Shown here piece by piece: positions 19,403-37,301 of a stretch of DNA of 64,000 nucleotides. The stretch lies in the NCBI GenBank assembly GCA_963785725.1, contig CAWAWS010000033.1:352001-416000 (forward strand). The letters are read 5' to 3'. Numbering within the stretch: the first letter of the stretch is position 1; every line of letters begins with the position of its first letter. Made by a program: the position numbers and the translations under genes. Under the pieces are notes generated by a model, which saw only the letters and a list, made by a program, of their open reading frames with translations, searched no databases and was not told the origin of the DNA. The DNA is from an uncultured delta proteobacterium (lineage in GTDB: Bacteria > Myxococcota_A > Polyangia > Palsa-1104).

Positions 19403-22400
19403 ATGGCCGATCCAGCTCAGCCGAAGTCGTCCGCGCCGCATCGCCAGCCCGTCGACGCACTCTCCGATCGCGCCGATCCAGTCGCGCAAAAGACGAGCGA
19501 GAGCGGTGTGCCGTCGGACGATCGGCCCGAGATTCCGCGCGTCGAGCTGCCGCGCGGCGGCGGCGCGCTCAAGAGCATCGACGAAAAGTTTCAAGTCAAC
19601 GCCTCGAACGGCACCGCCACGTGCGGCGTTCCGCTCCCGTTCTCGCGCGGGCGCGGCGACTTCACTCCCAACGTCGCGCTCGCCTATGATTCCGGATCGG
19701 GCAACGGCGTCTTCGGTCTCGGCTGGAACCTGAACCAATCGTTCATTCAACGCCGGACCGACAAACAGCTGCCGACTTACGACGACGCCGCCGAGCGCGA
19801 CGTCTTCACGCTCTCCGGCGCCGAGGATCTCGTCCCCGCGCTGATCGCCGACCCGAGCGGCGCGTGGTCGGTCGACCAGCTCACCGCGCCGACGGGCGAG
19901 CAGGTTAAGCGCTATCGTCCGCGCGTCGACGGCCAGTTCTCGCGCATCGAGCGCATCACGCTGCCTGGCAGTGCGACCAGCTATTGGAAGGTCACGACTG
20001 CCAGCAACGTCGTCACCGTCTACGGACGCAGTCCCGCCGCCCGCATCACCGACCCTACGCACCCCGAGCGCGTCTATCGCTGGTTACCCGAGCTCTCTTA
20101 TGACGACAAGGGACAATGCCTCGAATACGTCTATGTCGCGGAAGACGTCACCAAGAGCGACGGCACGATCACGATCGACAACACCGCGGCGGAGCGCAAT
20201 CGCCTCAATGGGCTATCGCCGATCGCCAACACCTATCTCAAGCAGATCAACTACACCAACAAGAACGCCTATTATCCCGATCCTGCGCTGCCGTATGACC
20301 CGCCGGCGCCGGCGAATCCCGATTACTTCTTCATCGCCGTGCTCGACTATGGCGACCAAGACGACGACACGCCGACGACGACTGCGCAGAAGGTCTGGCC
20401 GGCGCGCCTCGATCCTTTTTCGCAGTTCAAGCCGGGCTTCGATCTGCGTACATATCGACTGTGTCGTCGCATCCTGTTCTTCCATACGTTCAGCGAGCTC
20501 GCCGACGCGAAGCTGCCCGGCCCATGCCTGGTGCGCTCGCTCGACATCGGCTATCGATTCTTCGACAACCCGAGCGCCACACCCGACGAGCGGCGCAACC
20601 TCGAGGTCGACTATCCGATCTCGTTTACGCAGACCTGGTATCGCAACAACGGAGCCGGCGGCTACGATCGCCAGAGCCTTCCGCCGCTGCAAGTCACCTA
20701 TCAAGAGCCCAATTGGAACCTGCACGAGGTCCAAGAGCTCACGCCGCGGCAGCTCGCGAACGCGCCCGGCGGCTTGTCGCAGGGCTACCAGTTCGTCGAC
20801 CTGTGGAGCGAAGGTGTCTCGGGAATCCTGACGGAGCAGGGAAACGGCTGGTTCTACAAGAGCAACCTCGGAGGCGGCACCTTTACGCCGGCGCAGCCGG
20901 TGATTCCCAGACCGAGCTTCATCGGCCTGAGTGACAGCACGCTTTCGCTTCAGGAGCTCGAGGCCGACGGGCGGAAGTTCATCGTCAACACCGCGCCGCC
21001 GGTGCGCGGCTACTGGGAGATCAGCGATCGAGACGAGTGGCAGCCGTTCATGGCGTTCCCCAACGCGCCCAACGTCGACACGAGCGATCCCAACACCAAG
21101 TACATCGACCTGGACGGCGATGGCCGCGCCGAGCTGATCATCTCCGAAGAGAACGTCTTTACCTGGTTCAAGAGCGAAGGCGTGCTCGGCTGGGACGCGC
21201 CCGCGCGCACGCCCAAACCCTTCGACGAGGAGCGCGGTCCCGCGCTCGTCTTCGCCGACCCGACCGACAGCATCTTCCTCGCGGACATGAGCGGCGACGG
21301 ACTCACCGACATCGTTCGTATTCGCAGCGGCGAAGTCTGCTATTGGCCCAACCTGGGATACGGCCGTTTCGGCGCGAAGGTCACCATGAGCTTCGCGCCC
21401 GCGTTCGACAGCACCGAAGGGTTCAATCCCACGCTGATTCGCCTCGCGGATATCGATGGCACCGGCGCCAACGACATCGTCTATTTGGGACAGGGTCGCT
21501 GCCGCGCATGGCTCAATCAAGCCGGCAACGCCTGGAGTCAGGAGATCGTCGTCGATCCGTTCCCCACGACCGAGACGCCCAATCAGATCTCCGTCGTCGA
21601 TCTGTTGGGTAACGGCACCGCGTGCCTCGTCTGGTCGTCCCCGCTGCCGGCGCACGCCGATCATCCGATGCGCTACGTCGACCTCCTCGGTGGCAAGAAG
21701 CCGTTCCTGCTCAACGGTTATCAGAACAACTGCGGCAAAGTCGTCAGCTGGGAATACCGGAGCTCCACGCAATACTATCTAGAAGACAAGATTGCAGGCC
21801 GGCCCTGGGCGACCAAGCTCGCGTTCCCAGTTCAATGCGTAGGCAAAGTCTCCGTGAGCGACACCATCAGTCGCGCGTATCTGACGAGTCGATACACCTA
21901 TCATCACGGCTACTACGATCACGCGGAGCGCGAGTTCCGCGGCTTCGGCCGCGTCGAGCAACTCGACAGTGAATCGTTCGACGAGTTCGTCAAGAGCGGC
22001 AACGCCGCGGTCGATCAGCCGCTCTACCAGGCTCCGGTGCTGACCAAGACCTGGTTTCACACGGGCGTGTTCTTCGATGAAACCGACCTTCTGACCATCT
22101 ATCAATCCGAGTATTACAAGGCCACTTCGTTCACCGAATATCAGCTGCCGATTCATCAGCTCGAGCTCCTGCCGGGAGCGAGCGCGCACGAGCGACGAGA
22201 GGCGGCGCGCGCCTGCAAGGGAATCGTCATTCGACAAGAGGTCTACGGGCAGGACGACATTCCCACTGTCTCCACCCTGCCCTACACGGCGGCCGAGCAC
22301 AACGCGCTGGTCAACATGCGGCAGCCGGCGGGCCAGAATCCGTACGCGGTCTTCGTCGTCACCGAGAGCGAAGCGATCAACTACTACTACGAGCGCATCG

Positions 22401-37301: not shown

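Follow-up and report, generated by a model that had tools for sequence, protein, structure and literature searches.

A toxin complex locus with a candidate immunity gene between fused tcBC and tcA in an uncultured, probable myxobacterium

A 64,000-nucleotide (nt) stretch of DNA from an uncultured soil-dwelling delta proteobacterium of the Myxococcota_A (assembly GCA_963785725.1, contig CAWAWS010000033.1, positions 352,001 to 416,000; here called the window) carries an intact toxin complex (Tc) locus of three same-strand open reading frames (ORFs), namely, a fused tcBC gene, a gene for a protein of 209 amino acids (aa), and tcA. All structural features that we tested place the locus in the Tc family, and it has one that the family reportedly lacked: sequence comparisons indicate that the 209-aa protein is very probably the cognate immunity protein of the nuclease at the tip of the BC protein. 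The accepted targets of Tc toxins are eukaryotic cells, and Song et al. reported in 2021 that no immunity proteins were predicted in any of the Tc loci that they examined, which they cited as consistent with eukaryotic targets (PMC7861908, partial text); according to the same text, BC fusions were left out of that survey. Intact tcA genes with immunity genes, spare cassettes, and payloads directed at the cell wall or EF-Tu beside them contradict the stated absence and raise the question of whether a Tc syringe can intoxicate bacteria. If it can, interbacterial attack would have a new mode, relevant to predation and kin recognition in myxobacteria and to the origins of Tc toxins; if not, the loci still document the movement of toxin-immunity cassettes between carriers aimed at bacteria and carriers aimed at eukaryotes.

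A first-pass annotation of the sequence had described a fused tcBC gene, a 209-aa ORF, and a tcA-like gene in this order, with the small ORF 20 bp behind the Rhs tip and ATGA-coupled to tcA. The ORF calls and the Pfam domains of BC and TcA bear out the order, and the spacing and coupling are evident in the sequence: 20 nt separate the BC stop from the ATG at 27082, and the stop of the small gene overlaps the tcA start in an ATGA, a sign of translational coupling. The BC ORF is open from 19358 (2567 aa), and its second ATG lies at 19403 (2552 aa). BC has the TcB domains SpvB, FG-GAP, TcdB midN, TcdB midC, and RHS, together with the features of TcC, that is, an Rhs core with an autoprotease motif, a variable tip, and an adjoining tcA; Pfam found no PAAR or VgrG domain in it, and no signal peptide was seen by eye. 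The aspartates of the predicted autoprotease (Table 1) share motif and spacing with D651 and D674 of TccC3 (PMC7861908, partial text). TcA matches VRP1, ABC_toxin_N, Neuraminidase, and TcA_TcB_BD (PF03538, PF20220, PF18413, and PF18276), and its residues 2246-3038, covering the channel and the TcB-binding region, match YenA2 (E 2e-105) and TcdA1 (E 3e-87); the N terminus holds a transthyretin-like domain, judging from homologues. Compared with the Tc/ABC toxins TcdA1-TcdB2-TccC3 of Photorhabdus, YenTc of Yersinia entomophaga, and XptA2 of Xenorhabdus, the locus has all of the A, B, and C Pfam domains, the autoprotease motif in the Rhs core, and a tip within the usual 201 to 400 aa, but its B and C are naturally fused, its order is BC-partner-A, its TcA is longer and has an extra region at the N terminus, and the gene for its nuclease payload is coupled to that of a partner. 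The three genes have a GC content of 62-63% versus about 67-68% genome-wide, with host-like third positions, and this tcA encodes the sole TcA of the 8.9-Mb assembly, which is 88% complete.

TABLE 1 Positions of the features of the Tc locus within the window
Feature	Position	Strand	Remarks
Fused TcB-TcC (BC) gene	19403..27061	+	SpvB, beta-propeller, TcdB mid domains, YD/RHS shell, Rhs core, tip
Predicted aspartyl autoprotease, end of Rhs core	25898..25978	+	D2181 and D2204, 23 residues apart; second in PxxxxDxxG
Predicted released tip	25982..27058	+	359 aa, 38 kDa; Cys-bearing start, proline-rich linker, pre-toxin module, nuclease
Pre-toxin module	26198..26602	+	Roughly 135 aa; moderately hydrophobic by eye
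Predicted PD-(D/E)xK (restriction-endonuclease-fold) toxin domain	26612..27058	+	About 140 aa
Small gene, likely cognate immunity protein	27082..27711	+	209 aa from ATG 27082
tcA	27708..37301	+	3197 aa

The end of the tip is predicted to be a PD-(D/E)xK nuclease whose family has no name and lies near Tox-REase-7. Neither Pfam nor NCBIfam names a family for the tip or for its partner, and the prediction draws on a confident structure model of the domain (pLDDT, the predicted local distance difference test score, 95.8) whose top fold matches are mostly restriction-endonuclease-like, at modest scores (Z 5-6.7; Foldseek E >0.001). Across 51 aligned sequences, D54, K75, and Q95 are invariant and D73 is nearly so (D2472, K2493, Q2513, and D2491, respectively, in full-protein numbering), and we take these to be the catalytic-type residues of the motif. 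The E, D, D-x-K, Q pattern, the fold, and the C-terminal position are shared with the Tox-REase domains, of which Tox-REase-7 and Tox-REase-2 are nearest by features, but the window's domain has no Pfam match at E 0.1; membership in Tox-REase-7 (PF15649) was accordingly rejected, its model being unmatched at that threshold and the resemblance being at the level of features. Homologues of the domain form at least 116 clusters, with the domain at or near the C terminus in nearly all of them, and among 51 scanned for carriers, 8 had eCIS_core and 5 had RHS repeats. Searches of another 400 genomes from the host phylum and of viral contigs did not find the tip family.

The pre-toxin module in front of the nuclease is common to BC proteins that end in unrelated toxins. 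The core of one such protein (P0137) is 86% identical to that of the window and carries a different toxin, while four BCs whose cores are only 59-61% identical retain the same nuclease, so toxin domains are exchanged at the end of the pre-toxin module. The persistence of the nuclease at this core identity also implies that it is old in the clade, in which five of six BCs keep it. The locus thus has a conserved carrier with an exchangeable C-terminal toxin.

The small ORF is a real gene, with nine other homologues at 36-82% identity in a single-sequence search and a confident structure model (pLDDT 93.5). The protein has no match in Pfam, and assigning it to a fold failed, as the matches were generic three-helix ones to the last 55 residues (best Z 8.0). 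A weak lead is DUF4304 (PF14137), which does not match the 209-aa protein itself but makes up 18% of its Atlas cluster and matches one homologue at E 0.017. In an alignment-based scan of metagenomes, the small gene occurred in seven independent loci, and the nuclease tip stood directly upstream of it in three of them (L036, L037, and L038). One of these (L037) has the tip, the partner, and then the start of a tcA 44% identical to that of the window, with the order kept at 44-51% identity; the second (L038) has a BC fusion in a locus with another BC and the end of a TcA, and the third (L036) has the tip upstream of the small gene and is too short to place. Two of the remaining loci have <200 nt of upstream sequence and one has 396 nt. 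The other 78 named BC loci and the inspected loci of the phylum yielded no reported homologue of the small gene, and no orphan cassette of this tip or partner was found at the locus or elsewhere in the assembly. By these sequence comparisons, the partner tracks the toxin and not the carrier. The nuclease domain is acidic (isoelectric point 5.2) and the partner basic (9.0), a weak hint of pairing.

Tips and partners also varied together outside this family. Among 59 tip-partner couples (1711 pairs), partners were related in 9 pairs and tips were also related in 8 of these 9; six of the eight belong to the window's own tip and partner family, and the remaining two come from a pair of Polyangium loci and from an Ntox28-HEAT pair. 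Related tips had unrelated partners in four pairs, three of them in one array and two of those three matching over only 33 aa. Three Flavobacterium loci are 88-90% identical on both flanks and differ in their tips, a SUKH-3 gene being present only with a YwqJ tip; this is the deaminase tip of L095, from Flavobacterium procerum (SUKH-3 match, E 9e-26). In another named locus (L109), the coupled gene is an ATGA-coupled HEAT protein. A small gene conserved regardless of tip type would have spoken against an immunity function according to the first-pass annotation, and the comparison went the other way, with downstream genes co-varying with tips. The same Flavobacterium loci (L068, L088, and L095) also have three conserved small genes between BC and tcA whatever the tip, two of them Cys-rich, which are possible accessory factors.

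In the host phylum, a BC fusion was found in 30 of 401 genomes and TcA in 11 of 61 related genomes. We defined a coupled small gene as an ATG ORF of 65-520 aa starting -15 to +75 nt from the BC end and dropped tips of <100 aa and loci with <600 nt downstream; most, not all, places were fetched. Such a gene followed 30 of the 35 long BC ORFs and 14 of the 20 shorter or frameshifted ones, compared to 64/180 after long genes of this genome and 244/842 at random places under the identical rule; these are counts in which kin are not independent and some genomes contribute several loci. By hand tally, BCs adjacent to TcA have a coupled small gene in 18 of 20 cases (L140 being doubtful), and the two without one carry a hydrophobic tip and a beta-barrel-like tip. 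Pfam matches were obtained for 11 of 46 partners and include SUKH-4, SMI1_KNR4, Imm33-like, Imm1, ankyrin, HEAT, DUF2247, and others. One locus (L127) mirrors the layout of the window exactly, with a WHH nuclease, a SUKH-4/ankyrin gene 20 nt on, and, after about 20 nt more, tcA. Five genomes (G024, G284, G375, G195, and G051) have repeats of the core in fragments, each with its own tip and partner, in the first three also beside TcA, and such repeated core pieces are the mark of Rhs-type cassette arrays. With the antibacterial Rhs polymorphic toxins (type VI secretion Rhs proteins and TreTu/TriTu), the window has in common the YD cage, the variable tip, and the coupled downstream partner, and its relatives have in common the repeated core fragments with their own tips and the payload families WHH, GH-E, CdiA_C, TreTu, and Tox-REase-7; unlike those toxins, the window's BC is without PAAR or VgrG, and its cage has a TcB propeller and adjoins an intact TcA. 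As a separate observation on tips, those of three loci (L031:1406-4858, L057, and L066) look by eye like outer membrane beta-barrels and not like enzymes, and in L031 and L066 they run straight into tcA, with no partner between.

A number of observations weigh against an immunity function or a bacterial target. One of the seven small-gene loci (L040) has no tip in the 790 nt upstream, and in an incomplete search, no homologue of the partner was found with four other BCs that carry this tip. In the phylum set, most named immunity matches fall short of their curated cut-offs, and Pfam has no match for 35 of the 46 partners. The best 80 of 519 confirmed stretches in a GTDB scan (an estimated 1600 overall) were kept, and the 79 best loci come mostly from Bacteroidota, Bacillota, and other non-myxobacteria, with BC preceding tcA. 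The window's BC falls among proteins of Bacteroidota and Bacillota, next to L046, and only 10 of 57 of these best loci have a coupled small gene, including four from Polyangium or Sorangium, one with a frameshifted tip, and one in which it is a piece of a transposase. The gap from BC to tcA is ≤200 nt in 27 of 52 loci. Nuclease-type tips without a partner are found there as well, for example, DUF2380 in L046, the nearest named relative, and in L102, and RNase A tips are likewise without one; no decayed immunity gene was obvious by eye in the short gaps of such loci. Partners being rare in this set and common in the phylum, the window departs from its nearest named kin but is typical for its phylum. 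That the small gene instead helps BC or TcA to fold or assemble, or is an insertion unrelated to them, we regard as very improbable: L040 and the lack of any family or fold match to a known immunity protein would suit it, but the gene follows the toxin domain and not the BC core or TcA, and no homologue of it was reported in the other BC loci mentioned above.

The case for a bacterial target comes from related loci. A TcA-linked BC (L146) ends in a TreTu_C tip (E 1e-35; PDB 7zhl), and TreTu is described as an antibacterial EF-Tu modifier (PMC9825190, partial text). Another BC (L052) has a murein endopeptidase tip, Peptidase_M74 (E 2e-12), 71 nt before tcA, and in the two Polyangium loci, one of them (L110) from Polyangium fumosum DSM 14668, tcA is followed by a BC gene whose tip is FlgJ/glucosaminidase-like (E 2e-4 and 4e-3), and this in turn by the gene for an FGE-sulfatase-domain protein. 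In the latter loci, the FlgJ-like match is below the curated cut-off, and the partner has a signal-like N terminus; signal and lipobox calls were made by eye and with a simple script. Searches of PDB sequences left the Polyangium tip, the M74 tip, and the TreTu partner unconfirmed, and these calls rest on Pfam and NCBIfam matches. Export of the partner would make sense as protection from toxin that comes from outside the cell. PG_binding_1 is present at the N terminus of 10 of 63 TcA homologues and could also tether TcA to its producer. In our comparative analysis, bacteria-specific payloads, spare cassettes, and peptidoglycan-binding TcAs together support an antibacterial target at the level of the family.

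Three side observations touch on these proteins. JAB-like tips precede proteins with signal- or lipobox-like N termini three times (L045, L141, and L155), a hint of a periplasmic target. The TcA of Paenibacillus forsythiae (L098:13744-15093) starts with four PG_binding_1 domains. A 4214-aa TcA with 8 hemopexin repeats (L022:5725-18366, minus strand) accompanies a BC with a JAB-domain tip, a lipoprotein-like gene, and spare cassettes.

From the gene order, coupling, domains, protease motif, recurrence of toxin and partner, and tip swapping, we infer a mechanism whose steps go beyond this gene anatomy. BC would fold around the tip and cut it off at the motif of the Rhs core, and the basic 209-aa protein would bind the acidic nuclease domain and protect the producer and its kin. 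A TcA pentamer would dock the cage and cross a single membrane, in all likelihood the outer one of a Gram-negative cell, whereupon the pre-toxin module may carry the nuclease over the inner membrane; the cell-wall-cutting tips of related loci could act directly in the periplasm. TcA spans only one membrane, which suits tips that act in the periplasm, whereas tips that act in the cytoplasm would need a second step. The family would then be a polymorphic toxin system that swaps tip-plus-immunity cassettes by recombination. For the window, we put the chances at about even that a caged nuclease is injected by TcA into a bacterial competitor or prey, with kin blocked by the 209-aa protein. The first-pass annotation had proposed a payload toxic to bacteria next to its immunity gene, either aimed at competitors or prey or calling for self-protection during assembly; the immunity part is strengthened by the small-gene family that follows the same nuclease elsewhere, while the bacterial target has gained support for the family and not for this locus.

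The points on the other side of the target question concern the window itself and the known biology of Tc and Rhs toxins. PG_binding_1 is absent from the first 450 aa of the window's TcA, and its nuclease payload could harm any cell. The TccC6 protein of an insect pathogen has a YwqJ-like deaminase tip (PMC7861908, partial text), and in one study an Rhs cage without its immunity gene could not be cloned, the cage by itself being probably insufficient to protect the producer (10.1101/2024.02.26.582050, partial text), so an immunity gene is no proof of a bacterial target. It is thus possible, with a lower probability than injection into bacteria, that the 209-aa protein is a true immunity protein but guards the producer against escaped nuclease, or rode in with a tip from the antibacterial pool of Rhs and extracellular contractile injection system (eCIS) toxins, and that the Tc toxin itself targets eukaryotes such as amoebae, nematodes, or fungi. 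This alternative would account for the cage insufficiency of that Rhs toxin, for the lack of a partner in most close BC-to-A relatives, for the toxin swap in P0137, for the neuraminidase-like and channel regions that TcA keeps in common with insect-active TcAs, and for a tip family that is common on eCIS proteins. However, partner-less nuclease tips in the same clade suggest that the cage can suffice, the order of tip, partner, and tcA persists at the identity seen in L037, and the clade keeps its tip despite cores as divergent as those described above. Cell-wall enzymes, a TreTu tip beside TcA, and signal-like partners are also hard to square with cytoplasmic self-protection.

The role of TcA can be questioned separately. 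TcA_TcB_BD has no match in 13 of 29 BC-bearing genomes, a further point against injection by TcA, and these include the near-complete G195 and G051, whose BC toxins (L131, L144, L145, and L147) still have partners, spare cassettes, and cassette arrays with no TcA found; ABC_toxin_N was also not found in 5/5 TcA-negative genomes tested, in a search run without a positive control. BC and its immunity protein might then be an antibacterial toxin that needs no TcA and takes another route, as SpvB-Rhs toxins or bacterial teneurins do, with TcA being optional or meant for another target; we consider this unlikely. The intermixing of TcA-less and TcA-linked BCs on the tree and the presence in the genome of a VipB gene and two further SpvB-Rhs loci would agree with it. 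On the other hand, the window's tcA is intact, the only one in the assembly, and translationally coupled, TcA adjoins BC in most surveyed loci with enough flank, and many of the TcA-negative genomes are fragmented metagenome-assembled genomes.

Two known groups of toxins bear on such a route. The SpvB-Rhs toxins of the "TcdB/TcaC pathway" (PMC3482391) resemble the window in having SpvB, a beta-propeller, RHS, nuclease tips, and immunity families, but they are defined by a signal peptide, often with ZU5, which fits the second SpvB-Rhs gene of the window instead; the description by Zhang et al. in 2012 invokes no TcA injector and leaves TcdA, TcaA, TcaB, and "toxin complex" unmentioned (PMC3482391, partial text). 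Bacterial teneurin-like toxins are a YD-shell family of eukaryote-facing roles found with toxin-immunity pairs and frequent in myxobacteria, and their delivery machine is not known (PMC13018210, partial text), whereas the window's locus encodes TcA.

The second SpvB-Rhs gene of the window (46718-57550, minus strand) encodes 3610 aa with ZU5 and a signal-like N terminus and overlaps a gene for a 277-aa partner (45888-46721, minus strand); kinship of this partner with the 209-aa protein was considered and rejected, the two being unrelated. A third SpvB-Rhs locus of the genome lies on contig C38, and a VipB/TssC sheath gene is present (G000:C22:59561-60463), so the genome probably also has a type VI system.

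Our search found no Tc loci with immunity genes and no Tc toxin acting on bacteria, in a search that covered a minority of the subscription papers and did not extend to supplements (Zhang 2012, Song 2021, and preprints), and this too counts against a bacterial target. A 2024 review does not contain the words "antibacterial" or "immunity" (PMC11435725), and a preprint treats Tc as insecticidal (10.1101/2021.10.19.465003, partial text). A single sentence of a 2026 preprint links a few homologues of an antibacterial DNase to a Tc delivery system (10.64898/2026.09.22.753552, partial text), and the idea is therefore not wholly untouched. More broadly, a large and overlooked branch of Tc toxins with fused BC, in myxobacteria, Bacteroidota, and other environmental phyla, may be a diffusible antibacterial injection system in which TcA would pierce the envelope of bacterial cells to deliver polymorphic nucleases, EF-Tu modifiers, and peptidoglycan hydrolases while immunity genes and spare cassettes protect kin, and insect-killing Tc toxins would be a specialized offshoot of it; we see this proposal as evenly poised between right and wrong.

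A DUF1360-like membrane gene (18811-19227, minus strand) is divergent from BC, and a DUF1444-like gene (37298-38125, minus strand) is convergent with tcA with a 4-nt overlap; both were considered as members and ruled out because neither is conserved across the fetched loci. No holin or endolysin was found among the flanking ORFs scanned. The genome has 20 MYXO-CTERM matches above cut-off, which suggests a myxobacterium. The same lower-GC stretch encodes a 1521-aa protein with a Ca-dependent phosphatidylinositol-specific phospholipase C (PI-PLC) domain (39179-43744, minus strand), and an IS630-like transposase in two ORFs (HTH and DDE_3; 44251-45518, minus strand) lies between the two toxin loci.

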